Below, in pieces: positions 36,063 through 64,000 of a stretch of DNA of 64,000 nt (the stretch's first letter is position 1; each line of letters starts with the position of its first letter). The DNA is from an uncultured Pseudomonadales bacterium. GTDB lineage: Bacteria > Patescibacteriota > Microgenomatia > UBA1400 > PJMF01. Below the pieces are notes generated by a model. The model was not told the origin of the DNA. It saw nothing but the letters and a program-made list of their open reading frames with translations, and did no database searches. The DNA is taken from positions 298 to 64,297 of the forward strand of contig CAZZBW010000002.1 in the NCBI GenBank assembly GCA_964653045.1, written 5' to 3'. Position numbers and translations under genes: made by a program.

Positions 36063-36494
36063 CCTTACCCTTTGGGGATGTAACGCTTTGACGTGACAAG
36101 CTCTTTAACAGTCGCAAGTCGTCTTTAGTCAAAAGACGTAAAAAAGGACTAAAAACATAACTGCAGATACAATCAGCAGCAAAGCTCGCAACTTCGTAAC
36201 TGAAGTTGCCGAAGGTGTCGACTCTTTTGTCGATTCATTCAGAGCTCCACAAATGCTTTACGCATAAGTGGCATTCATCCGAGGCGTTTCACTGGCGCGC
36301 GCGGGTGGGTGACAAATCAGTCAGTGTGACAATCTGATCGTCTGTGCCGATCAGAAATAAGCAAATTGTACAGAGGGAGTGTGCTCCGGTTTGTTCATCC
36401 ACCCGCTTACTCCGCCAACTCAAAGATGAACTACACTTGTAGAAGCTGTTTTTGACTATTCACAGACACGGGCTCATTACCCGTCATCTCCACC
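36063..36494. other. GC-enriched structured non-coding region between convergent genes (candidate ncRNA or decayed gene)
   Basis: No ORF of 60 aa or more; local GC is clearly above its flanks; several hairpins (acgtctt..aagacgt) and a long-range pairing (gcgggtgggtga / tcatccacccgc about 90 nt apart). Confidence 0.25.
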
Positions 36495-37514
36495 TTACAA
36501 ATGTTTTTGGTTTATTGTTAGATAATACGCATCGATATCGCTTTTGATCTGTTTTGCTAACGCTTCTGCGAACTTAACAGGAACAGCATTACCAACCATT
36601 TTATAACCAGTAGCTAAATCATCATATATAAAACGAAAATCGTCGGGAAAAGTCTGGATTCTGGCGCACTCTCTTACAGTTAACCTTCTGTATAAGTGCT
36701 CTTTACCAGGAGCAAATATTCTTTTGTCATAATCAACAAATTTCATCTTTGGTGCCTGAGGATGAATTGGAGCATGCCTGCCACCAGCCTGAATTGTAAA
36801 CGATTGTTCATCCCAATTTCTGACTCTATTTCGCGACATATAAATTGTTGAAAAACCTCCATTCATGTACTCATGATTTGGCGTTGACAGATCTGATCCA
36901 TTTGTTTTGTTAAAATCTCTTGCTTTGACTGCAGTATCTTTTAGATCCCAAATCGTATCTCTTAGAGTTAGTTCGTTACTCGACACTTTTGGAAAAACAA
37001 ACTTTTTATTCATTTTTTTATGATAACCTACAAAAATTACTCTTTTTCTATCTTGCGGAACATTATAATTTTTTGCGTTTAATAACTGATAATCAAAACT
37101 ATAACCAAGTTTATTAAATTCTTCTATTAAATTTGAAAGCGCCTGTTGATGTCTAGTTGACAACATTCCTGAGACATTTTCTGCCAAAAAGAAAAGCGGT
37201 TGCTTGTCTCTAATTACTCTAATATGCTCAAAAAAAACTTTGCCTCTTTTGTCTCCCAAACCTCTACCGGCACCAGCCTCACTCCAACTTTGACATGGAG
37301 GACCACCAATTACTCCGATAGCTTTGGGAATCTCTTCAGAAGGAACATCGGTAACACTACGCTCGTCAACCACTGTATTTGGAAAGTTTTCTCTTAACGT
37401 AGGCGTAATAGTCGTATCAAATTCGTTTGCCCAAATTATCTTAAATCCGGCATTCTCAAAACCAAGGTCTAACCCGCCAGCACCTGTAAAAAGTGAAACA
37501 ATGTTATATTTCAT
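36495..37514 (-). CDS. DNA (cytosine-5)-methyltransferase, type II R-M
   Basis: FTGAGGLDLGF (motif I), GGPPCQSWS (PC motif IV), ENV (motif VI). Confidence 0.85.
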   Translation of the reverse strand: MKYNIVSLFTGAGGLDLGFENAGFKIIWANEFDTTITPTLRENFPNTVVDERSVTDVPSEEIPKAIGVIGGPPCQSWSEAGAGRGLGDKRGKVFFEHIRVIRDKQPLFFLAENVSGMLSTRHQQALSNLIEEFNKLGYSFDYQLLNAKNYNVPQDRKRVIFVGYHKKMNKKFVFPKVSSNELTLRDTIWDLKDTAVKARDFNKTNGSDLSTPNHEYMNGGFSTIYMSRNRVRNWDEQSFTIQAGGRHAPIHPQAPKMKFVDYDKRIFAPGKEHLYRRLTVRECARIQTFPDDFRFIYDDLATGYKMVGNAVPVKFAEALAKQIKSDIDAYYLTINQKHL

Positions 37515-39293: not shown

Positions 39294-40088
39294 TTATAAA
39301 AACCGATCTAATCCCAGGTTTTTGGAGTAAGCAAAGCTGCGGATGAAAAACCAGCCGGCCAGGGTGAGATAGAGAACATTCAGACCAAAGCTAATATAAA
39401 GATAAGTGGGATTGATGGGCGCGCCGCCCACTGCGGCGCGCATGCTCTCCAACACATACGTGGTCGGCACCAACATTGAAATTTTTTGCACGAAAAACGG
39501 TAGCCGATCCACCGGAAAATAGATGGCGCTAAACGGCAGTAAAATTCCTGGCAAAGCCCAAATAATTGTCTGGACCTTCGGCCCATGACGCAACACAATT
39601 CCAGAACCAAGTAGTCCTACCCACCAGCCAGTCATACTACACAAAAAGAAAAACGGCACTAGCCACCAACCAAGTGTAAAAGCGTTAACCGCATACAAAA
39701 TCAAAATTGCAGGAACCATTATGCCCAACGTAATTAACGTTTTGATTACTGACAATCCCAGTACAGCGGTCAGCCACTCACTAATCTTGAGAGGTGTCGA
39801 AAACAAGTTGCTGAGATTGCTGTTCCAAATCTCATCCATCAAGTTTCTGCCAACTTCAGACTGTGACCGCCAGATTATATTCCACAGGATTAAACCCATC
39901 AGAATTGCGGTGACCAAAGTTGGCGAACCACTTTCTTCAGTCAACCAACTACCAGTAATTCCCCAAGTCAAAGTGTCAATTAGTGGCCAATAGATCATGT
40001 CCGAAAGCAGATCAAAATCCCGCCGCAACGGATAGAGATGGCGCATAAACAAAGCTTTGACGCGGTGGTTAAAAATTTTATTTAGCAT
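39294..40088 (-). CDS. ABC-2 type transporter permease
   Basis: Six TM helices; lies downstream of the ABC ATPase; start moved to the ATG at 40088. Confidence 0.6.
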   Translation of the reverse strand: MLNKIFNHRVKALFMRHLYPLRRDFDLLSDMIYWPLIDTLTWGITGSWLTEESGSPTLVTAILMGLILWNIIWRSQSEVGRNLMDEIWNSNLSNLFSTPLKISEWLTAVLGLSVIKTLITLGIMVPAILILYAVNAFTLGWWLVPFFFLCSMTGWWVGLLGSGIVLRHGPKVQTIIWALPGILLPFSAIYFPVDRLPFFVQKISMLVPTTYVLESMRAAVGGAPINPTYLYISFGLNVLYLTLAGWFFIRSFAYSKNLGLDRFL

Positions 40089-41031
40089 TACCACCTTCCT
40101 TTGCCTGATTGATAAAGTAATCTTCAAGTGTCGGCTTATCAATACTAATTTGGGTATACTCAATTTTGGCATCGGCCAAACAAGCCAAGAAACCAGCAAT
40201 TAACGACTCTTCAATGTTAATTACAATCTCCCGCCCGTCAATGTTGCTGGCAAAGCCCTGCTCTTTGGCAAACCGCGCTGTCCTTTTCAAACCGTCTTTG
40301 ACTATTAATCTCATTCTAGCCAGAGACACAGATTGGGCCAATTTTTCCGGTGTGTCCTCAGCCACAATTTTCCCATGCTTAAGAAAAATTACCCGATCAC
40401 ACACATTGGCGACCTCATCCATATTATGTGAAGTGTATAAAATGCTAGTACCAAACTCATGTTGCTGTTTGGTCACAAATTGGCGCACTTCGTGCGCCAT
40501 ATCCGGGTCGAGTGACGCGGTCGGCTCATCAAGCAGGACAATCTTTGGGTATGAGATGAAGGCTTTTGTCAACATCACCCTAGTGACCTGACCAGCAGAT
40601 AACTGACTCAAAGTTTTATCCCGTTGTTGCCAAACTCCAAAATATTCCAAAAAATATTTCACTCGCTTATTAAATGTTTTTTTGCTTAATCCATACAACA
40701 ACGCATAAACCCACAAGTTTTCCATCACACTCAGCCGCCAGGGCATCTTGATGTAGGTACTGGCAAAAGTCACATTTTGTAATATTTCAGTACGGAAATT
40801 TTGGAAGTTTTGGCCAAAATAATTTACATCTCCAATCGTGGGAGTCAGGTTACCGATCAACATTTGAATTGTGGTTGACTTGCCTGCTCCATTGGGACCA
40901 AGCAGTCCCAAGATCTCACCCGGCTTGAGCACAAACGAGATATGATCAACCGCAGTAAACTCCGCCTCGCCCTTTCGGCTCGGCGGATAAATCTTGGTCA
41001 GCTGGCCAACTTTCAGCACTGGTGCTTTCAT
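40078..41031 (-). CDS. ABC transporter ATP-binding protein
   Basis: Walker A GPNGAGKST, signature LSAGQ, Walker B LLDEPT. Confidence 0.85.
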   Translation of the reverse strand: MKAPVLKVGQLTKIYPPSRKGEAEFTAVDHISFVLKPGEILGLLGPNGAGKSTTIQMLIGNLTPTIGDVNYFGQNFQNFRTEILQNVTFASTYIKMPWRLSVMENLWVYALLYGLSKKTFNKRVKYFLEYFGVWQQRDKTLSQLSAGQVTRVMLTKAFISYPKIVLLDEPTASLDPDMAHEVRQFVTKQQHEFGTSILYTSHNMDEVANVCDRVIFLKHGKIVAEDTPEKLAQSVSLARMRLIVKDGLKRTARFAKEQGFASNIDGREIVINIEESLIAGFLACLADAKIEYTQISIDKPTLEDYFINQAKEGGNAK

Positions 41032-42026: not shown

Positions 42027-42180
42027 AATAACACCGTCTCACCCATACTTCGACCGCTTTCTTTTGATCCCGAATTCATTACAACTCGGATTTACAAAGA
42101 GGCTATCATCCTATCAAAATAAATTTTCAACTTTTTTTTCAAAACGGTAAATTAGTATAAAAATTACTTTAAGTTTCAAT

Positions 42181-42196
42181 TAGCAAAATTTTGCTA
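42181..42196. promoter_or_regulatory. 16-bp perfect palindrome TAGCAAAATTTTGCTA (copy 1 of pair, region 1)
   Basis: Read directly; second copy (TTGCAAAATTTTGCTA, 1 mismatch) at 42331-42346, 150 bp away. Confidence 0.5.
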
Positions 42197-42330
42197 ATAT
42201 ATTCTTAGTAATAAATTGACAGTAGCGATTCCATCGGTTATCTACTAATAGATCTTCTGACCAAAGTATTTATCAAAAATACAAATTGGCACTGATGGAT
42301 TGCATTTTTCGTTTCGTAGGTTGGGAAACA

Positions 42331-42346
42331 TTTGCAAAATTTTGCT
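42331..42346. promoter_or_regulatory. palindrome copy 2 of pair, region 1 (1 mismatch)
   Basis: ttgcaaaattttgcta. Confidence 0.45.
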
Positions 42347-42421
42347 ACAAGCTATTATACGAAAGATACGACAACCAGATAGTCAGAATATAGTTATAGG
42401 ACTCTATGTGACATCCAATAA

Positions 42422-49485: not shown

Positions 49486-49529
49486 AGTTATATCTTAGCA
49501 GACATTTCCACCGTCTCTTTTTCAGCTTG

Positions 49530-49545
49530 TAGCAAAATTTTGCTA
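49530..49545. promoter_or_regulatory. 16-bp perfect palindrome TAGCAAAATTTTGCTA (copy 1, region 2)
   Basis: 45 bp upstream of the divergent UDG start; partner copy at 49679-49694. Confidence 0.5.
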
Positions 49546-49678
49546 AAAGTATTGGTCTGACCGAGCAAAATATATGATAACTAAGCTCTGTTTTTTGTAG
49601 TTACTTACTATTTAAATCAGGAAAATTAACAATTGAGCGATGTGATGATCGTAATGTTGGATTGAATACTCTTATTTA

Positions 49679-53175: not shown

Positions 53176-53874
53176 TCAACATACCCGACTCATCTCTAAA
53201 TAGGTAGAAGCAAAATTGTCTGATTTCCACAATAAGCTCCCAACTGCCACGCTATCCACACCGAGTTTTTTGAGTTTTTTCATTTTGGCGATGTTGATTC
53301 CTCCATCTACTACAATCTGATAATCAAGCTGGTTTTTAGCTCGATACTCAACCACCTGATCAATTAACGACCAAATGTGTTCAGAAAATTTTTGGCCCTG
53401 TTGCCCCGCCTCAACACTCATTACTTGAATTACATCTAACTTGCTCAAAACTTCTTCATCGATCGAGTCAAGCGGTGTATATAAATCGAGGGACAAGCCT
53501 ACTTGCCAACCTTGATCTCGCACCAACTTGACGTAATTCTCTTGACTGGACATCTTCTCAATTTGAGCAATTACCACTCTGATGGGTAATTGAGCTTTGA
53601 AATCGATTAACTCGTACACATAATCCATTGGCTCTTCCACCATCAGGTGAAAATCAGCATTAAGTTGATCGAAGTCCAAGAAAGCATAATCAGCTGGCGT
53701 TAATGTTAGATTGTCAGCATAAAAACCATCAATAATATCAATTTGGACTGTTTGGAGTCCGGCTTGGGCAGCCAGCTGCAGCTGGCTGGCTGCTTCTGTC
53801 ATATCCTCAGTCAAAATCGAGGGTAAAATTGCTAGTTTTTTTTTATCAGTTTTTTTCTTCTTCATACTTACCAA
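53176..53874 (-). CDS. rpe: ribulose-phosphate 3-epimerase
   Basis: PSILT.D...IDIIDG, HLMV, VMSVEAGQQGQKF, VDGGIN blocks. Confidence 0.7.
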   Translation of the reverse strand: MVSMKKKKTDKKKLAILPSILTEDMTEAASQLQLAAQAGLQTVQIDIIDGFYADNLTLTPADYAFLDFDQLNADFHLMVEEPMDYVYELIDFKAQLPIRVVIAQIEKMSSQENYVKLVRDQGWQVGLSLDLYTPLDSIDEEVLSKLDVIQVMSVEAGQQGQKFSEHIWSLIDQVVEYRAKNQLDYQIVVDGGINIAKMKKLKKLGVDSVAVGSLLWKSDNFASTYLEMSRVC

Positions 53875-54298
53875 TTTCAGCCACTCGCCGCAGATACTTC
53901 TCTTCTGTCAACTTGGGTGCATCAAGAAATACTGAAACTAACTCTTTGGCTTGATCCAACTCAAAATAATCTGAAGCGAGAGAAAGGACATTGATATGAT
54001 CATGTTGCTTGGCGTGCTCTACTTGATCTACAGACCAACCTTGGGCGGCACGAACTCCTCTGACTTTGTTGGCAGCAATGTTGACTCCCACGCCTGAACC
54101 GCAGATTAAAATGCCGAGAGCATCGGTGGCGGAGGCGGTCGCCTCCGCCACCACAATCGCCACATCAGGATAATCGTCATCCGGATCAAACTCTTCTGGT
54201 CCTAAATCAACCACAGTAACCTCTAATTCTTCTAACCATGGTTTGAGCTCGTTCTTGAGCTCAAACCCCCGATGATCCGCGCCAATATAGATTGTCAT
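53846..54298 (-). CDS. rpiB: ribose-5-phosphate isomerase B
   Basis: MTIYIGADHRGFELK... and ILICGSGVGVNIAANK RpiB/LacAB signatures. Confidence 0.85.
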   Translation of the reverse strand: MTIYIGADHRGFELKNELKPWLEELEVTVVDLGPEEFDPDDDYPDVAIVVAEATASATDALGILICGSGVGVNIAANKVRGVRAAQGWSVDQVEHAKQHDHINVLSLASDYFELDQAKELVSVFLDAPKLTEEKYLRRVAEIGKYEEEKN

Positions 54299-54382
54299 AG
54301 CAATTTACAGTGTATCAAACTTGACCCCGACTTTGCTAGAGCTTCATCGGGATCTCGTTCAATCATGCCCTTCTTGACTTAC

Positions 54383-54411
54383 TTGACAATAAAGCAGAAG
54401 CAGAAGAAAAT
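54383..54411 (+). promoter_or_regulatory. conserved promoter module TTGACA-N17-GAAAAT (copy B)
   Basis: ttgacaataaagcagaagcagaagaaaat. Confidence 0.5.
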
Positions 54412-54442
54412 AACGTGAGTATCAAGTCATGAAAGGTTTACT

Positions 54443-54766
54443 ATGGCAGAAGCATTTTTTGAAGCACCTGAAGAAATAAGTAGTGGGGTCAAAGAAAGAC
54501 CACCAACAGATACTGAAAATCCGGATAACGATGAACTATTAGTAGATCCAAACCAAGAATTGTTGAGTTCTGCACTCAATATTGTCGAACAACTTTCCAA
54601 AGACGGCAGAATTGGCGAATTAGCCCAAATTGCCAATGCGGCTACAGGAAAAATAAAACAAGCAATAGCTGAGGCTGAAGCGATGCACCACGAGGTGAAA
54701 CAACAAGGTGGTGGAGGTCAAAACAAATTACGGCAATTACTTGGACGGATTAGTGGTAGCAGATAA
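54443..54766 (+). CDS. small acidic hypothetical protein (module-B cargo)
   Basis: Conserved RBS GAAAGGTTTACT before the ATG; no domain. Confidence 0.5.
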   Translation: MAEAFFEAPEEISSGVKERPPTDTENPDNDELLVDPNQELLSSALNIVEQLSKDGRIGELAQIANAATGKIKQAIAEAEAMHHEVKQQGGGGQNKLRQLLGRISGSR

Positions 54767-54819
54767 AAATCTAAATCTTCGTCTGCTCTTACAAGTCAAT
54801 TGCGTTTAACACAACAAAA

Positions 54820-54870
54820 AAAATCCCCCCTACTGCGCCCCGCCGTTAGCGGGACTTCATAGGGGGGATT
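54820..54870. terminator. rho-independent terminator hairpin (strong for the minus-strand gene, possibly bidirectional)
   Basis: aatcccccct...aggggggatt stem with nested GC hairpin cccgccgttagcggg; A8 on one side gives a U8 tract for the minus-strand transcript. Confidence 0.6.
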
Positions 54871-54893
54871 TAAGTTTCAAAATAATTTATAAA

Positions 54894-55091
54894 TTATTTT
54901 TTCTTCAACACAGGCATGTTGGTGCGCTTGGTCTCCATGACGGCGTAACCAGCGGGAACGGCGTCAAGTGAGCCACTGCGAACATCGCGGGCGAAGAAAT
55001 AAATTCTTTGTTTGCGACCATTTTTCAGGGTCACATCTTTGAAATGCAGGTAGTAAACCTGTTTTTTAGCATTGGTATAGCTGTATGCCAT
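54894..55091 (-). CDS. small hypothetical protein
   Basis: 65-aa ORF immediately followed by a strong terminator. Confidence 0.35.
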   Translation of the reverse strand: MAYSYTNAKKQVYYLHFKDVTLKNGRKQRIYFFARDVRSGSLDAVPAGYAVMETKRTNMPVLKKK

Positions 55092-55169
55092 ACGTGTCCT
55101 TTCTTTAGGATGCTACTTACTACTCTATTTATAGCACACTTGAGGTGTGTTGCAACAGCCAATCTGGAG

Positions 55170-55718
55170 TTATTCGGATACCTCTTTACCGACCCTACCC
55201 TTGAGGACCACGTTACCCATTTCTTCACCCAAGCTCATTCCTCTCGTGATCATCACATCAACCGGAAGCTGTTCTTCAGAAAAAGCTCCACTACCAATCA
55301 GTCCTCCTTTTCCCTCAATTAGGGCAAAAGCTTGCTTCGGCTCCAGAGCACCTTCAGGCTGCAACCACACATAAAAACTATCGCTCTGGTTGACGCCACT
55401 GGCGATGACGCTTAATTTGACTTTACTATCCTCGATTTCATAGCGTAACACTCCATTGAGCGGTTGAACGGGTGATGGTTTTTGGGTCACCTTATCTTTT
55501 GTTTCGGTGACGTTTGGAGTTACTTCTTCTAGTGGTACTGTCGTATAATCTCCAACACCACTCAACGCTTCGCTCAACTCCTCTTCGGACAGATTCTCAA
55601 TCTCGATACCTTCACCATAGTCAGAAATTTCACCCCGACGGTCATACCACCTGGTGATCAGAAAGACTACAATGACAACTACTAAGGCAGGGAAAATATA
55701 TGGTGTAAGTTTATTCAT
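55170..55718 (-). CDS. hypothetical membrane-anchored protein
   Basis: N-terminal TM helix; no motif. Confidence 0.4.
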   Translation of the reverse strand: MNKLTPYIFPALVVVIVVFLITRWYDRRGEISDYGEGIEIENLSEEELSEALSGVGDYTTVPLEEVTPNVTETKDKVTQKPSPVQPLNGVLRYEIEDSKVKLSVIASGVNQSDSFYVWLQPEGALEPKQAFALIEGKGGLIGSGAFSEEQLPVDVMITRGMSLGEEMGNVVLKGRVGKEVSE

Positions 55719-55801
55719 AGTTTGATGTTATTTAGCACTCCTTTGATCTATATTCTGCCTAATTAATTTCAGATGTCAATGACTAATAGGAAAATCAGTA
55801 G

Positions 55802-56068
55802 TTATTCGGCTTCAATCGGCCAGACTTGATTGCCAGTTCCAGTGTCAATTACAACTATGGCTGCAGTTGGACAACTCTGGGCGGCCAACAGTTTCGTCTC
55901 GTCGTCGTCTCCTTCTTGACTGATGACTCGAGCAATTCCCTCTTCATCCAGCTCAAACACACCGCCGGCTATCGCGACGCAGCTGGCCGCACTAATACAT
56001 TTGTCCCTGATCACAGAAACTTGGTACTTACCAATTTGCTTGGTGGTGACGTTGGGCTGATCTGACAT
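55802..56068 (-). CDS. small ferredoxin (single Fe-S cluster type)
   Basis: CISAASC...C...CP cysteine spacing; 88 aa, acidic. Confidence 0.55.
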   Translation of the reverse strand: MSDQPNVTTKQIGKYQVSVIRDKCISAASCVAIAGGVFELDEEGIARVISQEGDDDETKLLAAQSCPTAAIVVIDTGTGNQVWPIEAE

Positions 56069-56124
56069 ATTGTTCCTTTGGTTTCGTTAATTAATATTGA
56101 GTATTTAATTTAAAATAATCGCAG

Positions 56125-56904
56125 CTAAAAGAATTTCTCTTGATGGATGTGGGCTGGGTCAATTCCTTTTCCTGTCAAAATTTTGCTCACGTCTTGGATC
56201 ATGTTCGCCCTGCCACACAGGTAAAATCCCGTGGCAGGGCGAAACTCATGCGCCAAGACCAAATCGGTCACTCTACCAGTGCTGAGCGTCCACTCTGGGT
56301 GGGGTTGCGACAATGTAGGATAAAAATGGAAATTGGGTAATTGCTCGACTAATCCCTGAAACTCATCTAACCAAAATAAATCATTTGCGTTTCGCATCCC
56401 CCAGTAGAGCACAATCTCTCGTTGGTCTTGGCGCACTTGTACCAAATCCAAGATCATGCTGTGCATCGGTGCGATCCCAGAGCCAGTGGCAATAAACACC
56501 AACGCTGTTTCGCTCTGGTCGGCTATCACAAACTGACCCATCGGCCCAATCCCCCGAACGCTGTCACCGAACTTCAGATTATCTAAATACTGTGAACCAA
56601 TCCCACCAGGTGAGCGATCTATCAGTAGCTCAATTCCGTGTTGAGTGGCTGGCGAAGAGGTAATCGAGTAAGATCGCCGGTGCCCAACATCGTCAACCTG
56701 AATCGAAACATACTGGCCAGACTTAAAACCAAGCTCATGTGGCTCTGTCAGCTCAAAGTGATACTCCGCAAACTTGTCATTAAACTCAATTTTTTCTTCA
56801 AATTTGGCGGTAAACTGCTTGGGTGGATTGAGTACAGGATTCATGTGCCAAGAGTATAACATTGTCTGACAAGGGTTAGTAAAATTATGAGGTGACGCTG
56901 TCAC
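56125..56904 (-). CDS. FNR-family FAD/NAD(P)-binding oxidoreductase (ferredoxin reductase-like)
   Basis: RRSYSITS (RxYS FAD motif), GSGIAPM NAD(P) motif. Confidence 0.7.
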   Translation of the reverse strand: MTASPHNFTNPCQTMLYSWHMNPVLNPPKQFTAKFEEKIEFNDKFAEYHFELTEPHELGFKSGQYVSIQVDDVGHRRSYSITSSPATQHGIELLIDRSPGGIGSQYLDNLKFGDSVRGIGPMGQFVIADQSETALVFIATGSGIAPMHSMILDLVQVRQDQREIVLYWGMRNANDLFWLDEFQGLVEQLPNFHFYPTLSQPHPEWTLSTGRVTDLVLAHEFRPATGFYLCGRANMIQDVSKILTGKGIDPAHIHQEKFF

Positions 56905-57008
56905 ACTGAGTCCCGATGCAAATCGGGATCGAAGTGTGAGAAAACAGCCAATCTATCATCCAATTCTTTCATTCGGCTTACATAAGTTAAATTGGGTTTC
57001 CTTTGTTG

Positions 57009-57024
57009 TAGCAAAATTTTGCTA
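57009..57024. promoter_or_regulatory. 16-bp perfect palindrome TAGCAAAATTTTGCTA (copy 1, region 3)
   Basis: Partner perfect copy at 57159-57174. Confidence 0.5.
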
Positions 57025-57158
57025 AATCTTTAAGCTAATTGAGCAAGGTAAATTGGAAAGCAGTGTTAGTCTTTTGTAACTGACTGATAGTTAGATCTGG
57101 AGTGTTCGTAAGCAGACGACAAGTAGAACCATGCATTAAATTTAGCTTTTATAAATTG

Positions 57159-57174
57159 TAGCAAAATTTTGCTA
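57159..57174. promoter_or_regulatory. 16-bp perfect palindrome TAGCAAAATTTTGCTA (copy 2, region 3)
   Basis: 150 bp from copy 1; followed at 57194-57220 by GGTTGAAACGAGGTTGAAACCTGGTTT. Confidence 0.5.
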
Positions 57175-57377
57175 ATTGATAGGGATGAAGTTTGGTTGAA
57201 ACGAGGTTGAAACCTGGTTTGGTGCCAACTAGATGGATCAAATTTGAGGTGATAACAACAAAGTGACACCGAAACTCAAAATTTAATTAATCTACCGTTC
57301 TAACTCAATGGCTGAAAAACCAGCTTGATCCCGACTTCGCCAAAGCTCCGACGGGGTCTCGTGCTTTTTCTATTTTT

Positions 57378-57406
57378 CTGCTCGAACTTGACAAAGAAGA
57401 AGAAGA
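57378..57406 (+). promoter_or_regulatory. conserved promoter module TTGACA-N17(GAA repeats)-GAAAAT (copy C)
   Basis: ttgacaaagaagaagaagaagaagaaaat. Confidence 0.55.
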
Positions 57407-57457
57407 AGAAGAAAATACAGGGAGTATTTGTTTGGTTTTGATATTGAAGGGATACAA

Positions 57458-57874
57458 ATGAGCGAAGAACAAACAACGGGTCGGGATTTAGAAGCGAGAT
57501 TAAAAGAAGGTGAAACCCGAGAAGCTTCATCCACACCAGAAATTGTCATTAATGCGGCTGATTTACCCTTGCCTGAGCCAGAAATAACATTTGACGAAGA
57601 GGGAAATGTAGAATCCGAAAAAGTCGTAGTTTATCGCTTCGACATTACGAGGTTGGGAGAAGTAATGGATCGTTTAATCTATCATGCTGATAAAATTACG
57701 GGAGCATTGGATTACGGTAATTGGAGATTAGATAAAGAAAAAATCAAACCCGATAGCAGTGGGTGGGTTGAAATATCAGTCGTTAGAAACTCTGCTCCTC
57801 AAGAAAATCCTGAGCTCAGTAAATCTGTCGATGATCTTCGAAGATATTTTGCAAATTGGATGACAACAAACTAA
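57458..57874 (+). CDS. small acidic hypothetical protein (module-C cargo)
   Basis: ATG at 57458 preceded by GAAGGGATACAA; the ORF track uses the TTG at 57428. Confidence 0.5.
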   Translation: MSEEQTTGRDLEARLKEGETREASSTPEIVINAADLPLPEPEITFDEEGNVESEKVVVYRFDITRLGEVMDRLIYHADKITGALDYGNWRLDKEKIKPDSSGWVEISVVRNSAPQENPELSKSVDDLRRYFANWMTTN

Positions 57875-57885
57875 GGTTCAACAAC

Positions 57886-58479
57886 TTACTCATCCCACCC
57901 GTCTCCATACCAAAGTCCCAATGCTAACTTAGTAATGTTGGCATACTCGTCAGTCCGGGTAACAAAATTACGGGTGACTACTCCAATCATGCCTTGATTA
58001 TGACGAATGTCGGCGCCGGCGAAAAGATGGCTTAGAGCCGGCCCCATTTCTTCACCAGACCTGATTGGATCAGCAATAATTGGTGGTAACTTAATTCGGG
58101 AACCGTTGGCGGTGTGAACGCGACCATCCTGATCCACCACCGCTCCCCAAACCGTTGACCACAACTCTTTTCCCAAATCGCACACACCGCCTTCTAGACC
58201 AAAGCCTAAACAAACAGCCTTGTTTTTCTTTTCCAACTCAGCTAAACCAATTTTTAACGCCAATTTTGCCCGGTTAATTGCACCACGCATAGTCTCGTCA
58301 TCACTTCTAGGTTGAGCTGGTACTCCAGACTCAACTGCAAATCCTTTCACTATTGTTTGCGGCCAATATTCTCCAACAGCCCGCTGCACAGCGTTCAGCT
58401 TCACTCGGTTATCAGAGCCAACAAAACAGTAATCCAGCGCTTTGATTGGTTTAGTCAAAATTTGTGTTTGATTATTCAT
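57886..58479 (-). CDS. inosine/xanthosine triphosphatase (YjjX/DUF84 family)
   Basis: VESGVPAQP..DDETMRGAINRA matches YjjX VESGVPEQP..EETRAGARNR. Confidence 0.65.
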   Translation of the reverse strand: MNNQTQILTKPIKALDYCFVGSDNRVKLNAVQRAVGEYWPQTIVKGFAVESGVPAQPRSDDETMRGAINRAKLALKIGLAELEKKNKAVCLGFGLEGGVCDLGKELWSTVWGAVVDQDGRVHTANGSRIKLPPIIADPIRSGEEMGPALSHLFAGADIRHNQGMIGVVTRNFVTRTDEYANITKLALGLWYGDGWDE

Positions 58480-58910
58480 TATTTTTTCCTAGTTAACTCC
58501 AACGCCAATGCCCTTTTGACTGTCATCAATCCCAAGCTCAAACACTTGAGTCGCATCGAACTGATCTGCGTCAATCCAAGCTGGGCAAGCAGAGCTTCGC
58601 TCTTGAGCCCCAACACTTGTTTGATGCTCATGCCTTTGATCATCTCGGATAAAACACTCATCGCGGCTGTGCTGATCGCACAGCCGCTCCCCTGCCATTT
58701 GACTTCGTCAATCTTTTTCCCATCGGCACTCAGCTTCATTCCCACCGTGATTTTATCGCCGCAGCTAATATTTCGTTCAGCTTTAATTATCTGCAAGCCA
58801 GTTAACTCACCAAAGTTTTTTGGGTACTTGGCCTCCTCTAGAATCACCTGCTGGTAAAGATTGTCAGCGCTATCACTCATCACTGTTTTATACCTTGTTT
58901 GGCTTCCCAC
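58479..58910 (-). CDS. sufU: Fe-S cluster assembly scaffold SufU/IscU-like
   Basis: NISCGD, ...GSGCAIS cysteine motifs. Confidence 0.8.
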   Translation of the reverse strand: MGSQTRYKTVMSDSADNLYQQVILEEAKYPKNFGELTGLQIIKAERNISCGDKITVGMKLSADGKKIDEVKWQGSGCAISTAAMSVLSEMIKGMSIKQVLGLKSEALLAQLGLTQISSMRLKCLSLGLMTVKRALALELTRKK

Positions 58911-59335
58911 TCTCTGACCACTGCCAACGCTTCAGCCTCCAGCTCTTTGAGATGAATAAACTCGATTGATTGATTAAAGGTTTTAATCAATGGGCGGGCA
59001 TTAGCCGGGGTTTCGTAGTAATCACCTGACACTTTACTCTTCGACACAGCGTACACAATCCGCCTGATACCCGCCCAATACGCCACCCCAGTGCACATCA
59101 GGCATGATTCCAAACCAATATATAAAGTCGCGCCTGTTAAAACACCATTTTTATTAAACGCCTCAGTGACTGCTTTAGAATCGGCGTGAAATAATCCCGG
59201 AAACGGAACACTAACCGCCGAGGCTAATATTTCACCATCTTTGACTACCACTGCCCCAGCAGGAAAGTTGCCTTCTGCTAGCGATTTTCGTGAATTAGCA
59301 ATTGCTTGCTCTAAAAAATGTTTATCCTTATTCAT
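58880..59335 (-). CDS. CDA-fold nucleoside/tRNA deaminase with variant active site (HAD / SCxxC instead of HAE / PCxxC)
   Basis: LFHADSKAV ... LESCLMC aligned to the TadA HAEIMAL ... LEPCVMC. Confidence 0.6.
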   Translation of the reverse strand: MNKDKHFLEQAIANSRKSLAEGNFPAGAVVVKDGEILASAVSVPFPGLFHADSKAVTEAFNKNGVLTGATLYIGLESCLMCTGVAYWAGIRRIVYAVSKSKVSGDYYETPANARPLIKTFNQSIEFIHLKELEAEALAVVREWEAKQGIKQ

Positions 59336-59348
59336 ATTTCTCTAGTTA

Positions 59349-60566
59349 CTAACCAAATACTTTTTTGACTTTTTTCAATCCGTCAACCAGCTTGTCGATG
59401 TCTTCTGGTGAATTATAAACACCAAAGCTGGCGCGAACGGTTGCCGTCCAACCGAAGTGGGTATGTAGCGGCATACAACAGTGGTGACCGGAGCGCACGG
59501 CGATGTTTTCACTATCCAAAATTTGAGCTACATCGTGAGCGTGGACACCGCGGTACAGGAATGCAATCGAGCCAAGGCGGGTGGCGTCGGTGGGACCGAC
59601 GAGCTCAATTTCTTTAATCTGTGAAAGTTTTTCGAGAGCCAGTGCGGTCAACTCCCAATCGTGGGAGTTGACCGCAGGCATAGTTAAGTCAGATAAAAAC
59701 TTGCACGCCTCGGCCAGCCCCGCGGCCGAGACGACATCCGGCGTGCCGGCAGTGAACCGCTCAGCCAACTCTTCGTTGTAAGTACTTTTATCTAAATTAA
59801 CCGCTTCGATCATCCCACCGCCGAATAAATAGGGACGAAACTCTTCGCTTGTTAACAAAGATTTTTTCACTAATAAGCCGCCAACTCCCATCGGCCCATA
59901 CATTTTGTGACCGGAAAAAGCAAGGAAATCTGCGCCAATTTTGTTAAAATCAATTTTAATTCTGGACGCGGCTTGAGCCGCGTCCAACAGTACCCGCACA
60001 CGATATTTTTTTGCTAGTTCAATCACGCGACCAACATCGTTAACTGTACCCAACGCATTAGATAAATAACTAACTGCCACCAACTTAACTTGTTGATTTA
60101 GGTGTTTTTCTAACCACTCATAATCTAATTGTCCGGTAGGTAAAACTGGGATGAATTCAAGCCGCGCGCCGGTGCGCGCGCACAACTCCTGCCACGGAAC
60201 AATGTTCGCGTGATGTTCCATCACGCTACTGATAATCACGTCCCCGGCATGCAAATTTCGTTCACCCCATCCATAAGCTACCGCATTGATACTTTCGGTA
60301 GCGTTTCGGGTAATGATCAGCTCTTCGGGTTGGGCACCAAAAAACTGTGCAATGGTTTTTCTTGCTTCTAACCAATTATTAGTACTAATATCGGACAATT
60401 TATGTACTCCGCGATGAACGTTGGCATTTGACGTTTGGTAATACTTTCCAATCGCGTCAATTACGCTTTCAGGTTTTTGGGTAGTGGCGGCATTATCCAA
60501 ATAAACTAAGTTAGGATAAGTGCGAAAAATGGAAAATTGGGATTTTAATAACACTGCGTTCAACAT
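59349..60566 (-). CDS. sufS: cysteine desulfurase (SufS-like, class V aminotransferase)
   Basis: PLP-dependent fold; SGHK lysine motif; C-terminal RSGHHC active-site Cys. Confidence 0.85.
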   Translation of the reverse strand: MLNAVLLKSQFSIFRTYPNLVYLDNAATTQKPESVIDAIGKYYQTSNANVHRGVHKLSDISTNNWLEARKTIAQFFGAQPEELIITRNATESINAVAYGWGERNLHAGDVIISSVMEHHANIVPWQELCARTGARLEFIPVLPTGQLDYEWLEKHLNQQVKLVAVSYLSNALGTVNDVGRVIELAKKYRVRVLLDAAQAASRIKIDFNKIGADFLAFSGHKMYGPMGVGGLLVKKSLLTSEEFRPYLFGGGMIEAVNLDKSTYNEELAERFTAGTPDVVSAAGLAEACKFLSDLTMPAVNSHDWELTALALEKLSQIKEIELVGPTDATRLGSIAFLYRGVHAHDVAQILDSENIAVRSGHHCCMPLHTHFGWTATVRASFGVYNSPEDIDKLVDGLKKVKKVFG

Positions 60567-60593
60567 AAATTAACATTCAAAATTATTACTCAC

Positions 60594-61115
60594 TTACTTA
60601 CTTCTTTTTAATCTTTTTTTCAAACCTTCTGGAATGTATTGAGCGATCACCGACACTAATGATTGATTCCGTGGCTTAACGTGATCACTAATAATTAACA
60701 TACAGAGTGAGTGCACATTATCCGGTTTGAGTTGATACTCACGTGACGCTTGTGCCACAAACAAAGCCAAATCATACATTTGTTTATGCGAAAGCGTTAG
60801 CTCTAAATCATGAAAAAATAAGAACGCATCGGTATACAAAATACACATTCGTTTGTTACCGTTTTCAAATGGGTGTAAACAATTTATTTTGTAATAATAC
60901 GCCGCTGCAGCTTCCAAAACGGTCGGATACAGATACGTATCATCAAAAGACTGTGAAACCGCGCCAAGAATGGCTTCCAAACGACCAGGGTATCTTGTTT
61001 CAAACTCTTTAAGCGGTTCTTGGAACTTAACTTGTTGGCGAAAGTTTTCGTAAATACTTTTGCACAAAATCAGGTTCAGCCAAATTTTTGGAGGAGCATT
61101 GAGAGCCGCATTCAT
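60594..61115 (-). CDS. doc: Doc (death-on-curing) / Fic-family toxin
   Basis: HPFENGNKR matches the Doc signature HxFx(D/N)GNKR. Confidence 0.75.
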   Translation of the reverse strand: MNAALNAPPKIWLNLILCKSIYENFRQQVKFQEPLKEFETRYPGRLEAILGAVSQSFDDTYLYPTVLEAAAAYYYKINCLHPFENGNKRMCILYTDAFLFFHDLELTLSHKQMYDLALFVAQASREYQLKPDNVHSLCMLIISDHVKPRNQSLVSVIAQYIPEGLKKRLKRSK

Positions 61116-61266
61116 ATTTTTCCAAATTTAAATAAGTTTGACGATATTTTTTGATACTGTTGACCACACTGCCCTTGACTGCGCCATCAGACACTCCAAG
61201 CCCTTCAGCAACTTGTGGCCGCTGCTTGGTACTTGTAGCTAGTCGAGAAATAAAATTTTTCCACAT
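61027..61266 (-). CDS. possible small antitoxin/HTH protein overlapping the 5' end of doc
   Basis: 79-aa ORF in another frame directly upstream of and overlapping doc; weak HTH-like segment EGLGVSDGAV. Confidence 0.3.
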   Translation of the reverse strand: MWKNFISRLATSTKQRPQVAEGLGVSDGAVKGSVVNSIKKYRQTYLNLEKYECGSQCSSKNLAEPDFVQKYLRKLSPTS

Positions 61267-61291
61267 AACTGATCTTTCAGTGTAACATAGA

Positions 61292-61798
61292 TTAGACTAA
61301 ATAACCAGAGATGATTAACCGGCGCGCGGCTTGACGACTCAAGCCGCGCGACAACAAGTAAAACAGCTGCTTTTCATCAATCTGGGAAATACTAGTTGCG
61401 TGCGAGCACTGGACATCATTGTGATTTATTTCAAGTTCAGGATGTAGTTCAGCTTGAACTGTTTTTGATACAGCGAGAACTCGCGCGGAGAAAAATGATT
61501 TAGCTTCAGAACAACCCGATTCAGTAATAATTTTCCCGCTGATCTTGATTTTGGATCGATATTGAGCAACTGCCTTGAGCGACACGGTGGCAGAATTTTC
61601 ACCGACCATATGCTGAACTATTACACTAACGTCAAGCTGCGAATGTGGGTTTACTTGCCAACGGCCAATGATTTTGACGTACGCTCGTTCTACCAGTAAG
61701 CGCACCAGGTAATCTCCAGCTTTTTTAAGCCTAACTTCCTGCTCACCTGGTTGATCAATGTCAATGATTTTCATCCCACATTGCCTTCCATCTCGCAC
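61292..61798 (-). CDS. sufD: short SufD-like protein (C-terminal beta-helix portion only)
   Basis: C-terminus HNDVQCSHATSISQIDEKQLFYLLSRGLS matches the SufB/SufD C-terminal motif; only 168 aa; overlaps sufB by 28 nt. Confidence 0.6.
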   Translation of the reverse strand: MRDGRQCGMKIIDIDQPGEQEVRLKKAGDYLVRLLVERAYVKIIGRWQVNPHSQLDVSVIVQHMVGENSATVSLKAVAQYRSKIKISGKIITESGCSEAKSFFSARVLAVSKTVQAELHPELEINHNDVQCSHATSISQIDEKQLFYLLSRGLSRQAARRLIISGYLV

Positions 61799-63216
61799 TC
61801 AATCAAGCGGTTCATTTCGACTGCGTACTCGAGCGGTAAAGTTCGCACCAACTCGCTAATAAATCCATTGACAATCATTTTCCTCGCATCTTCTTCACTG
61901 ATTCCGCGGCTGATTAAATAAAATAGCTGATCTTCACCAACTTTAGAAACTGTCGCCTCGTGCTGCACGTTGGCTTGAGCCTGAAAAATCTTTTGGGTTG
62001 GGTAAGTATCAGATCGTGACTGCTCATCCAAAATCAGCGCGTCGCACACCACGCTGTTTTGACTATGATGAGCTTTAGGTCCAACGTTGACCAGACCACG
62101 ATAGCTAGTCCTCCCGCCATCTTTACTGATCGACTTGGAGACAATGGTAGAGCTGGTGTGCGGAGCTAAGTGAATCGCTTTACTGCCGGTGTCTTGGCGC
62201 TGGCCGCTCCCGGCCAGCGCCATACTTAGCGTCTCCCCTTTTGCCCCTTTGCCAGCCAACACCAAGCTTGGATACTTGATGGTCACCTTACTCCCCAGAT
62301 TAAAATCAGTCCAGATCATCACTCCTTCTGCTTCAACCCACGCCCGCTTGGTTACCAAGTTATATACGTTTTTGTACCAGTTCTGGACTGTGGTGTACTG
62401 GCACCGTCCACCTTTTTTGACGAACACTTCAACTACAGCTGAGTGCAAACTACTTTGAGAAAAGACTGGCGCGGTACACCCCTCAACATAGTGAACTGAA
62501 GCACCTTCGTCAACAATGATTAGAGTCCGCTCAAACTGTCCGGCTCGATTGGCATTAATGCGAAAATATGTCTGGAGCGGCAGCTTAATTTTCACCCCCT
62601 TGGGCACATACACAAACGATCCTCCTGACCAAACAGCGGAATTTAAAGCAGCAAATTTATTGTCACCGCTCGGCACTAATTTACCAAAGTACTGTTTAAC
62701 TAAATCTGGATATAACTTCAACCCTTCGTCCATCGACAAAAAAACCACTCCTTTCTCGCGCCAAGAATAGTGGAGCGAGCCATACACCACCTCGCTATCA
62801 TATTGCGCTTTGACACCGGACAGCACCAATTGCTCAGCTTGAGGCAATCCCAGTTTGGTAAAGGTATTTTTAATCGCGCTGGGAACTTTTGCCCACGAAG
62901 TAGTCACACTGTCAGTCGGCTTCAAAAAGTAATGAAAGTTGTCAAAGTTAAGAAGCGACAGATCTGGTCCCCAGCTGGGTAGAGATTTGCTCTGGAACTG
63001 CGCCAGCGCCGCCAGCCGCTGGCGCAACATCCACTCTGGCTCCGCTTTAATCCCCGAAATTTCTTTGACCAATTCCGGTGATAACTTGAGTTTGCTAATA
63101 TGGCTGTAGCGATCCACCGGATCGCTCCAGCCCGGAAAGTACTGATTGTTCTTTTCGTCTTCCCGCTTTTTGCTTGCTCTTGATTTATTGTTTGTTGCCG
63201 ACTTCACATTTCCCAT
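61771..63216 (-). CDS. sufB: Fe-S cluster assembly protein SufB
   Basis: FERTLIIVDEGASVHYVEGCTAP and C-terminal LFYLISRGISEEDA signatures; 481 aa. Confidence 0.9.
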   Translation of the reverse strand: MGNVKSATNNKSRASKKREDEKNNQYFPGWSDPVDRYSHISKLKLSPELVKEISGIKAEPEWMLRQRLAALAQFQSKSLPSWGPDLSLLNFDNFHYFLKPTDSVTTSWAKVPSAIKNTFTKLGLPQAEQLVLSGVKAQYDSEVVYGSLHYSWREKGVVFLSMDEGLKLYPDLVKQYFGKLVPSGDNKFAALNSAVWSGGSFVYVPKGVKIKLPLQTYFRINANRAGQFERTLIIVDEGASVHYVEGCTAPVFSQSSLHSAVVEVFVKKGGRCQYTTVQNWYKNVYNLVTKRAWVEAEGVMIWTDFNLGSKVTIKYPSLVLAGKGAKGETLSMALAGSGQRQDTGSKAIHLAPHTSSTIVSKSISKDGGRTSYRGLVNVGPKAHHSQNSVVCDALILDEQSRSDTYPTQKIFQAQANVQHEATVSKVGEDQLFYLISRGISEEDARKMIVNGFISELVRTLPLEYAVEMNRLIECEMEGNVG

Positions 63217-63386
63217 CGCGGCAGTAGTATATCAGCCAATTTTAACCCAACAAAAAACCACCCTAATGGTGGTTTTTTGGTCGAACTGACCACTGCTGTA
63301 ACTTTAGAGCCAAACCTGCGATTGAGAAAATTATAACAAACAGCTTAATTTTTATCTAGTATTAATTTTTGATAAAAAAACAATCG

Positions 63387-63454
63387 TGGAGGTGACGGGA
63401 ATCGAACCCGCCAGCCCAACTTCGCAGGTTTGGCCCTACACCAGTAGCACCCCC
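63387..63454 (-). tRNA. atypical 68-nt tRNA-like gene (normal acceptor/T arm/anticodon arm, truncated D arm; anticodon loop CTGCGAA)
   Basis: Reverse complement GGGGGTG..CACCTCC acceptor pairing, GCGGG-TTCGATT-CCCGT T arm, but only 15 nt between the acceptor and the anticodon stem. Confidence 0.35.
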
Positions 63455-63512
63455 ACGACAAAATTCAGTTTAATAAAAATTACTTACAATAACCGTAAAA
63501 TTATTTATTCAA

Positions 63513-63974
63513 TTATTTTTGACTTACCATTTTCCTAATAAACCCATTCGACTTCCCAGCGAAGCCAAAATCGTACCGATCGAACTGATCTAATTTAATC
63601 CAAGCAAATTCGGTGTGTTCGTCGCTAATCACGACTGCAGGTTGAGCCGGCAAAAGAATTTTCCAGCCAACAATAATTGTGTAAACTTGTTTGTCAGCCT
63701 CAAAGTAAGTGCTGAAGTGTAGTGGCACAGCACTGAGTGAGTTAGCATCAACAACAATTCCGGTTTCTTCTTGAATTTCCCTGAATAGTTCTGGCAGATT
63801 GGGGTTGGCAACGTCGGTAATGCTTTGCGGCCACTCGCAGTTGCCGCCAGGCAAATCCCACTGGGCGGGACGAGTGAGAGCGTGGGGCGAGCGCTTGAGG
63901 ATCAAGAGCTCGCCATCAGCCATAATTACAGCTTTTTGTAATAACTTGACCTGCTCGGTTAATTGGTGACTCAT
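63513..63974 (-). CDS. NUDIX hydrolase
   Basis: Nudix box GGNCEWPQ...LFREIQEETGI. Confidence 0.75.
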   Translation of the reverse strand: MSHQLTEQVKLLQKAVIMADGELLILKRSPHALTRPAQWDLPGGNCEWPQSITDVANPNLPELFREIQEETGIVVDANSLSAVPLHFSTYFEADKQVYTIIVGWKILLPAQPAVVISDEHTEFAWIKLDQFDRYDFGFAGKSNGFIRKMVSQK

Positions 63975-64000
63975 AAACTCCTCCTTTTTATGCCTGATAT

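Follow-up and report, generated by a model that had tools for sequence, protein, structure and literature searches.

We analyzed a 64,000-nucleotide (nt) stretch of contig CAZZBW010000002.1, hereafter the window, in which a two-gene cassette lies on the minus strand between the iron–sulfur (Fe-S) cluster assembly genes sufD and sufS. The cassette consists of a Doc-family gene and a small open reading frame (ORF) that precedes and overlaps it. Our preferred interpretation, to which we assign a probability of about 0.6, is that this is a Doc-type, toxin–antitoxin (TA)-like cassette with a previously unannotated mini-partner, that it became fixed at the seam between sufD and sufS in the ancestor of a clade, and that it heads a sufS–sufU unit. 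The clade is best read as a small group of Woesebacteria-like bacteria of the candidate phyla radiation (CPR), in which the cassette would have been inherited vertically under purifying selection since its fixation. An original prediction, made from the letters of the window without database searches, had pointed to a Doc-family gene with an overlapping upstream partner between sufD and sufS and had called this an unusual site for such a module; our analysis bears this out.

ORFs were called on the whole window and assigned to families using Pfam and NCBIfam profiles with their cut-offs. Every minus-strand ORF named in the original prediction is present, and the profile scores confirmed the family assignments. 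The cassette and the genes that flank it are as follows:

61771..63216, minus strand: sufB, full length, 481 amino acids (aa); TIGR01980 670.6 bits, cut-off 346.4
61292..61774, minus strand: mini-sufD, 160 aa from its most likely start, overlapping sufB by 4 nt; PF01458, covering profile positions 98-231 of 232 only
61279..61287, minus strand: putative extended -10 promoter box TGTTACACT, 12 nt ahead of the small-ORF ATG; TGnTAnnnT motif
61027..61266, minus strand: small partner ORF, 79 aa; conserved ahead of doc in every relative, no family match
60594..61115, minus strand: doc, Fic fold, 173 aa; PF02661 46.2 bits, cut-off 24
59349..60566, minus strand: sufS, cysteine desulfurase, 27 nt downstream of doc; TIGR01979 488 bits, cut-off 475

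Active Site and Fold of Doc

The product of doc carries the sequence HPFENGNKR at residues 81-89 (60849-60875), and this motif is invariant in 11 of 11 aligned sequences, distant homologs included. It aligns with HIFNDANKR of P1 Doc. A profile match to PDB 3K33 confirmed this alignment. The Doc-type motif is reportedly HxFx(D/N)(A/G)NKR, with a lysine replacing the second glycine of the Fic motif, and the protein in the window conforms to it. The doc ATG is invariant across the aligned relatives. The ratio of nonsynonymous to synonymous substitution rates (dN/dS) for Doc is 0.08 between the window and locus L014, and about 0.04 between L001 and L004 (loci compared in this work are given L numbers).

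AlphaFold2 (AF2) modeled Doc with a predicted local distance difference test score (pLDDT) of 84.7. The top Foldseek matches of this model in the PDB were the P1 Doc–Phd structures 3DD7, 3K33 and 3KH2, all with a probability of 1.0 and a target-normalized TM-score of 0.63-0.65, and the class I Fic toxins VbhT and EcFicT formed a second tier. In profile searches against PDB sequences, Doc of E. faecalis (9VZC) was the closest solved protein (E = 3e-16), followed by 3K33 (E = 7e-4). The Fic fold and the H-x-F-x-(D/N)-(A/G)-N-K-R motif are thus held in common with P1 Phd/Doc (3K33, 3DD7, 3KH2) and with the chromosomal Phd–Doc of E. faecalis (9VZC; PMC13034048), as is a small gene that lies upstream of the toxin gene and overlaps it. 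The protein in the window is longer than in these systems, by about 10 residues at the N-terminus and about 30 at the C-terminus. Doc phosphorylates EF-Tu on Thr382, and Phd blocks it by occupying the nucleoside triphosphate (NTP) site (PMC7758455); by analogy with this paradigm, the Doc of the window may have the same target and its partner the same mode of inhibition.

A longer Fic protein of 225 aa (P0003) was considered and rejected, because its start is over-called: the first 48 residues come from reading the small-ORF region in the frame of doc. No EF-Tu gene was found within the 64-kb window. A scan of viral sequences for related Doc proteins returned one distant Fic protein only.

A Small Conserved Partner Precedes doc at Every Locus Examined

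The original prediction regarded the 79-aa ORF as a putative antitoxin. It does prove to be a real, conserved gene, but it matches no recognized antitoxin family. It overlaps doc by 89 nt. The conserved core comprises residues 1-52 (61111-61266) and ends ...SVVNSIKKYRQTYLNLEKYE, while residues 53-79 form an out-of-frame tail inside doc. All relatives have a small ORF upstream of doc, always in the -1 frame with respect to doc and reaching 67-100 nt into it, and within the suf-embedded clade the core S-V-x-N-S-I-K-K-Y-R/K-x-T-Y-L-x-L-E stops exactly at the doc ATG. The core is under purifying selection, with a dN/dS of 0.17 between the window and L014 and 0.09 between L001 and L004. In the region of overlap, dN/dS is at least 1 in the small-ORF frame and about 0.1 in the doc frame. 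These ratios indicate that only the first 50 or so codons of the ORF are selected as protein and that the tail inside doc is not.

A hidden Markov model (HMM) of the core was run on the window and all 106 fetched loci and found exactly one copy upstream of each Doc locus among them. A Streptomyces copy that had been left out of the model was recovered at E = 9e-11, and the sole other hit was noise (E = 0.43). No homolog of the small ORF was found in a collection of 5.8 billion proteins, since gene callers do not predict the ORF.

The original prediction had suggested a check of the 79-aa ORF for a Phd-, AbrB- or helix-turn-helix (HTH)-type fold; PDB profile searches gave nothing consistent. 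The lone lead was a weak match of one family member to a helix of sigma-factor region 4 (E = 0.008), and a ribbon-helix-helix or HTH antitoxin, for which this match was the whole of the support, was rejected as the identity of the partner. The conserved part of the partner ends in one basic amphipathic helix (…V.NSIKKYRxTYLxLE), and the low-confidence AF2 model likewise renders the conserved segment as a long helix, residues 27-52. As would be expected of a type II module, a co-oriented small gene abuts or overlaps doc on its upstream side at every Doc locus examined. The partner does not, however, have the fold of Phd/YefM or of another recognized antitoxin.

Several departures from Phd/Doc concern the partner. 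It is not Phd/YefM and has no Pfam, NCBIfam or PDB match; its conserved part is only about 40-52 aa long, with a single conserved helix and probably no DNA-binding domain; and in the suf clade it overlaps doc out of frame by 67-100 nt. The cassette also differs in being, as it appears, vertically inherited within the suf cluster and not carried on a plasmid, phage or island. A very small antitoxin encoded upstream of a Fic gene is likewise found in the class I Fic pairs VbhT/VbhA and EcFicT/EcFicA (3SHG, 5JFF), where the antitoxin supplies little beyond the inhibitory helix; the partner in the window is comparably small. In contrast to these pairs, the motif in the window is of the Doc kinase type (NKR) where theirs is an AMPylation motif (GNGR), the folds match less closely (TM-scores of about 0.35-0.42), and the inhibitory motif (S/T)xxxE(G/N) is not present in the partner helix in the alignments inspected. 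We also looked for this Fic inhibitory-helix motif at the N-terminus of Doc, where it is absent too, and dropped it as a candidate.

The Cassette Is Shared by Diverged Lineages

The original prediction asked for a comparison of suf synteny in relatives, and this showed that the order sufB–mini-sufD–small ORF–doc–sufS is conserved. Six diverged lineages besides that of the window (L001, L004, L007/L009, L014, L017 and L021) have the cassette between sufD and sufS; their SufB is 68-96% identical to that of the window in full-length alignments, and their SufS 55-76%. The order sufB–mini-sufD (153-167 aa)–gap–doc–sufS–sufU/DUF84–FNR-like reductase also holds on metagenomic contigs with Doc homologs 54-93% identical to ours. 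A search of 185,579 species-representative genomes gave a single close match, the only one from the clade: the Candidatus Woesebacteria metagenome-assembled genome that contains L014, with a Doc 94% identical to that of the window. This match places the lineage within the CPR/Microgenomates.

Across the suf-embedded loci, the identity of Doc to the window protein is 47-68% by global alignment and 54-68% by tblastn. This is comparable to SufS (55-76% and 54-75%, respectively), and the tblastn identities of mini-SufD (38-42%), SufU (32-61%) and DUF84 (48-62%) lie below that of Doc. Neighbor-joining trees of Doc and SufS recover the same groups, one with the window, L014 and L007 and one with L001 and L004; L021 and L017 branch separately. 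The spacing between doc and sufS is 8-27 nt, and in L021 the two genes overlap by 20 nt. Shared synteny, similar trees and low dN/dS together indicate that the cassette is old, vertically inherited and under purifying selection.

The earlier description of the site as the interior of a core operon was overstated, since the junction between sufD and sufS is variable among these genomes. In L004, a LemA gene and a hypothetical gene stand between doc and sufS, and in L017 an RNase HII gene does so. A scan with the mini-SufD profile found a related lineage, L024/L027 (SufB 66-67% identical), with the order sufB–mini-sufD–sufS and no doc; an opposite-strand gene of 305-356 aa occupies the gap. The cassette is better seen as seated at the seam of a sufBD and a sufSU module.

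Related Cassettes Occur Outside suf Clusters

A partner of about 40 aa (…AVKKxxKKYRKTLxxLAxT) also precedes related Doc genes at loci L102, L104, L105, L106 and L018; the Doc of L018 is 40% identical to that of the window. L102, on a Saccharibacteria chromosome (JAEUQU010000002.1, 2870-3432), adjoins a phage-type integrase, and L106, from Streptomyces sp. (JBITCX010000005.1, 1355-1935), adjoins a Replic_Relax gene. The cassette of L105 (2331-2935), on an unclassified contig, interrupts the conserved cluster secE–nusG–rplK–rplA between nusG and rplK. This is a second case of the cassette family lodged in a core gene cluster.

In L102 and L104-L106 the partner is 40-45 aa long, ends …YRKTLxxLA(K/Q/L)T-stop and shares an ATGA stop/start overlap with doc. 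In L018 and the suf clade, the overlap between partner and doc is 34-100 nt. The junction of the suf clade, GAA AAA TAT GAA as against the canonical GCA AAA ACA TGA, is consistent with a 1-nt deletion by which the stop was lost and the ORF ran on. In the NCBI genomes of L106 and L102, Doc is annotated and the upstream ORF for the partner of about 40 aa is not (MELSMSNTTAPLTDDQKKVLDAAVKKTLKKYRKTLQKLALT; MNKQPSVPVPPTPQRKAEIDAAVKLVVKKYKKTLKMLAQT).

Promoter Motifs Suggest Two Transcription Units

In 10 of 11 loci, the 45 nt ahead of the small ORF contain the extended -10 motif TGnTAnnnT, against a chance expectation of about 0.04 per locus, and the motif is kept amid otherwise unconserved sequence. 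Its end is, in most loci, about 8-13 nt from the start codon, so that the leader would be very short or absent. The same style is seen at sufB, where TGnTATACT stands 9-16 nt ahead of the ATG in the window, L001, L004 and L009. Directly upstream of sufS, we found no extended -10 in the window, L007, L001 or L021, in all of which sufS comes directly after doc. Only L017 has one there (TGGTATAAT), and in L017 an opposite-strand gene parts sufS from doc.

Within the last 25 or so codons of mini-sufD lies a GC-rich hairpin (61319..61354, minus strand) with a perfect stem of 12-16 base pairs. The hairpin of the window has a folding energy of -27.4 kcal/mol (z = -4.0); that of L014 reaches -37.1 kcal/mol (z = -7.4). 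The hairpin is specific to the lineage of the window and L014, being absent from more distant relatives, and it may mark a transcript end or a processing site between sufBD and the cassette. The layout as a whole suggests two units, sufB–sufD and small ORF–doc–sufS–(deaminase)–sufU–DUF84. This promoter layout would be compatible with a coupling of toxin expression to suf transcription, as the original prediction had proposed.

Possible Mechanism and Competing Explanations

If the P1 Phd/Doc paradigm carries over, the partner would bind Doc through its conserved helix and block the active site, and Doc left unbound would stall translation by phosphorylating EF-Tu. Ribosomes on the partner ORF would continue about 30 codons into doc, which could couple or limit doc translation. 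Where sufS abuts doc it has no extended -10 of its own, so the promoter of the cassette would be the proximal promoter of sufS–(deaminase)–sufU–DUF84 in the window lineage.

Several points weigh against the interpretation of the cassette as a Doc-type TA-like module that was fixed in the clade ancestor and heads the sufS–sufU unit. Neither 10 members of the small-ORF family nor their profile gave a consistent match in Pfam, NCBIfam, PADLOC or PDB sequences, and the single-sequence AF2 model of the partner reached a pLDDT of only 52. The partner seems too small to hold a DNA-binding domain, which makes classical autoregulation doubtful. Doc itself narrowly misses the cut-off of TIGR01550 (DOC_P1; 35.2 bits against 38.65), and this miss marks it, on profile evidence, as a member of a divergent Doc subfamily. 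The neighbor-joining trees carry no support values. The promoter calls are motif-based only, and a generic scan for -35/-10 pairs and terminators returned no more sites than shuffled sequence. Finally, syntenic retention with housekeeping-level conservation is atypical of a selfish TA module and would suit domestication equally well.

Domestication is the alternative that we take most seriously, although we consider it unlikely. Here Doc and its partner would be a regulator tied to Fe-S biogenesis and no longer an addiction module; such a regulator might, for example, throttle translation through EF-Tu when Fe-S or redox homeostasis fails, or modify a Suf protein. The cassette keeps one syntenic position in relatives whose SufS identity is as low as 55%, Doc matches SufS in conservation and has a dN/dS of 0.08, doc and sufS are tightly spaced or overlapping with no extended -10 for sufS alone, and CPR genomes are streamlined and usually lose dispensable genes. 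All of this would fit a domesticated regulator, whose function would account for the retention of the pair at the head of sufS–sufU. An intrinsic link to suf is nevertheless hard to reconcile with cassettes beside an integrase, beside Replic_Relax and between nusG and rplK, or with a junction that takes unrelated insertions, lacks doc in L024 and L027 and has other genes parting doc from sufS in L004 and L017. No sequence feature indicates a Suf substrate either.

The remaining explanations are all highly improbable in our judgment. The original prediction allowed for a recent insertion, that is, a mobile TA module newly arrived in the suf operon of this genome. The GC content of 0.36-0.41 over the cassette, compared with 0.43-0.52 in the flanking suf genes and a window mean of 0.43, would agree with this, as would the mobility genes that adjoin related cassettes elsewhere. 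It is contradicted by the identical position in six other diverged lineages, the agreement of the Doc and SufS trees on the main groups, a Doc dN/dS of about 0.08, and the absence of repeats or an integrase flanking the cassette. The long overlap could also be read as a disrupted antitoxin gene in a decaying remnant, with doc, the small ORF or both inactive: the canonical LA(K/Q)T-stop/ATGA junction has been lost, the small ORF now extends 22-33 codons into doc, and its tail has a dN/dS of at least 1. Decay is very hard to square with strong purifying selection on the small-ORF core and on Doc, an invariant catalytic motif, and conserved start codons and promoter box. We find a programmed +1 ribosomal frameshift near the doc start, which would fuse the small ORF and doc, just as implausible. 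Such a fusion would agree with the +1 offset of doc from the small ORF at all suf-embedded loci and with the end of the conserved part of the small ORF exactly at the doc ATG; yet that ATG is invariant, the window has a stop codon in the doc frame 4 codons upstream of it, the distant cassettes are two clear ORFs with an ATGA overlap, and no slippery or stop-codon shift site is evident.

SufD Is Short Throughout the Lineage

The drastic shortening of SufD noted in the original prediction is real, but the length of 168 aa given there, with which SufD would overlap sufB by 28 nt, is not upheld. The 168-aa version is the longest ORF, beginning at GTG 61798. The most likely start is ATG 61774, giving 160 aa and a 4-nt ATGA overlap with sufB. 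We prefer this start because gene callers chose it on an identical contig and because it yields the beginning MKIIDID that is common to SufD homologs of 151-161 aa.

Mini-SufD aligns to residues 287-393 of E. coli SufD, a segment that includes the CSH motif (DDVKCSHGATVG, with C358/H360, compared with NDVQCSHATSIS). Relative to the E. coli protein, it is without about 285 N-terminal residues and the last 30 or so C-terminal residues, and the equivalents of C358 and H360 are kept. TIGR01981 scored 115 bits on mini-SufD, below its cut-off of 222, so that this is not a full-length SufD of about 420 aa. The protein is short in relatives too (151-167 aa). Of 1.84 billion cluster representatives searched with a mini-SufD profile, those of 29 clusters scored E<1e-30, and most of these were 150-215 aa long and aligned end to end. 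The occurrence of the short form across relatives and in many metagenomic clusters points to a protein family rather than to a truncation specific to one genome, and the 160-aa SufD appears to be a lineage-typical mini-SufD and not a product of decay. A literature search on SufD in CPR bacteria found no description of mini-SufD.

sufC and the Remainder of the suf Cluster

The minus-strand order over the whole cluster is sufC (3' tip only)–nudix–sufB–mini-sufD–small ORF–doc–sufS–deaminase–sufU–DUF84. The members outside the cassette and its immediate flanks, together with the region before sufB, are these:

63988..64000, minus strand: 3' end of sufC (13 nt, with the stop codon); junction identical in L010, remainder outside the window
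63513..63974, minus strand: NUDIX hydrolase gene between sufC and sufB, with an AAGGAGG Shine-Dalgarno sequence ahead of it; PF00293, E = 2e-8
63217..63358, minus strand: sufB upstream region, studied by promoter scan, folding and upstream comparison
58880..59335, minus strand: cytidine/dCMP-deaminase-fold gene between sufS and sufU; PF00383, E = 6e-18
58479..58880, minus strand: sufU, 133 aa; PF01592 76.5 bits, TIGR01994 84.4 bits, under the 92.5 cut-off
57886..58479, minus strand: DUF84/YjjX-type NTPase gene abutting sufU; PF01931 141 bits

The statement in the original prediction that the operon has no sufC was an artifact of the window edge: sufC begins beyond the end of the window, and its last 13 nt fall inside. 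Contig L010 is 99.99% identical to window positions 53783-64000 and extends 2850 nt past the window end. It encodes a SufC of 243 aa (L010:2132-2863; TIGR01978 288 bits, cut-off 212.8), which ends 14 nt ahead of the nudix gene. sufC is thereby placed about 770 nt upstream of sufB, with nudix and a non-coding stretch in between. An ABC ATPase gene at 40078-41031, the only complete one in the window, was rejected as sufC because it is paired with an ABC-2-type permease. SufB, SufC, SufS and SufU are all present, SufC by way of L010, and the suf system around the cassette is complete. A NUDIX gene directly downstream of sufC and upstream of sufB is also found in L001, L004, L009 and L010, with one or two opposite-strand genes between it and sufB. 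In L001, L004 and L009, the contigs that reach that far upstream, sufC and nudix lie a few genes ahead of sufB.

The original prediction had named, as evidence against itself, relatives with an identical conserved order, a full-length SufD and a SufC nearby, together with a Doc that is a conserved, non-toxic, Fic-like housekeeping protein. The conserved order and the nearby SufC were found, but SufD is short in all relatives. The closest known systems are E. coli SufBC2D with SufS (PDB 5AWF, 2ZU0, 1VH4) and the Gram-positive SufCDSUB system; the cluster resembles them in containing SufB, SufC, SufS and SufU and a SufD homolog with the CSH motif. It differs from them in that SufD is much shorter, a nudix gene parts sufC from sufB, the Doc cassette parts sufBD from sufSU, and a DUF84 NTPase gene abuts sufU.

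In L001 (9752-10741) and L004 (11085-12080), SufU (NifU_N) and DUF84 (NTPase_I-T) form a single protein of 329-331 aa, and this fusion hints at a functional link of DUF84 with Fe-S assembly. Among the loci compared, the deaminase-fold gene is restricted to the lineage of the window, L014, L022 and L010, which marks it as a recent addition to the cluster. Its translation has HAD in place of the catalytic HAE and SCLMC in place of PCxxC. Every relative examined has an FNR-like reductase gene downstream of sufU/DUF84, and the window lineage, L007 and L020/L021 also have a ferredoxin gene there. A (TTC)6-7 run (57395-57413) lies between the DUF84 and FNR-like genes, beside a 148-aa ORF (57428-57874, plus strand).

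The Region Upstream of sufB and Other Sequence Elements

Upstream of sufB we found a promoter-like TAGATA-17-TATAAT with TG (extended -10 TGTTATAAT), then a small hairpin, then an intrinsic-terminator-like stem (AAAAAACCACC...GGTGGTTTTTTG) with a U-run, and a second extended -10 (TGATATACT) 9 nt ahead of the sufB ATG. About 120 nt before sufB (63217-63340) are nearly 100% identical between the window and L014, compared with a synonymous divergence of about 0.38 in the flanking genes. This stretch could be a small RNA or an attenuator; it matched no Rfam family.

The original prediction also placed a tRNA-like gene upstream of sufB. ARAGORN calls none there, and what remains is a match to the ends of the tmRNA (transfer-messenger RNA) model only, at 32 bits against a gathering score of 47. 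The element is 71 nt long (63384-63454, minus strand) and has an acceptor stem GGGGGUG/CACCUCC (G3:U70) and a T-arm. It belongs to an insertion of about 130 nt that L010, L012 and L013 have and the 94%-related L014 lacks. The genuine tmRNA of the window (36074-36495, plus strand) has ends unlike those of this element.

A 20-mer, TTAGCAAAATTTTGCTACAA, occurs at five sites in the window (42178-42199, 42331-42350, 49527-49548, 57006-57027 and 57156-57175), compared with an expectation of 0.03. At its core is a palindrome, TAGCAAAATTTTGCTA, that overlaps an extended -10-like TGCTACAAT. We consider the 20-mer a candidate operator or promoter motif; two of its copies are found upstream of the FNR-like reductase gene (56125-56862, minus strand), and none upstream of sufB or the Doc cassette.

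Significance

The toxin is of a known kind. What is new with respect to Pfam, NCBIfam, the PDB and the literature searched is the partner family, its long overlap with doc out of frame, the lasting place of the cassette in the suf cluster of a genome-reduced CPR lineage, and mini-SufD; in that literature we found nothing relevant on Doc or Fic in suf operons. Nothing so far shows a new mechanism. A more far-reaching proposal is that the cassette is wired into Fe-S biogenesis, with its promoter the working promoter of sufS–sufU–DUF84, with Doc and its partner setting or sensing expression of the sulfur-mobilizing half of SUF, and with the partner as a new and widespread family of Doc antitoxins. 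We regard this proposal as speculative and rather improbable. If it were true, translation capacity would be coupled, through phosphorylation of EF-Tu, to the demand for Fe-S clusters in a genome-reduced CPR bacterium, and the partner of about 40 aa would be a new Doc antitoxin family of CPR bacteria and Streptomyces.

TA modules are usually regarded as mobile accessory genes. The Doc cassette described here stays put in a housekeeping gene cluster for Fe-S assembly, in lineages whose SufS identity falls to about 55%. It is as conserved as the adjoining housekeeping genes, and its promoter is probably the proximal one for sufS–sufU. The 160-aa mini-SufD, a C-terminal third with the Cys/His pair, offers a natural minimal SufD for studies of the SufBC2D scaffold. 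The gene for the partner of about 40 aa has been overlooked by gene callers, Pfam and NCBIfam in organisms that range from CPR bacteria to Streptomyces, and many 'solo' Doc genes in the databases may have an overlooked partner of their own.

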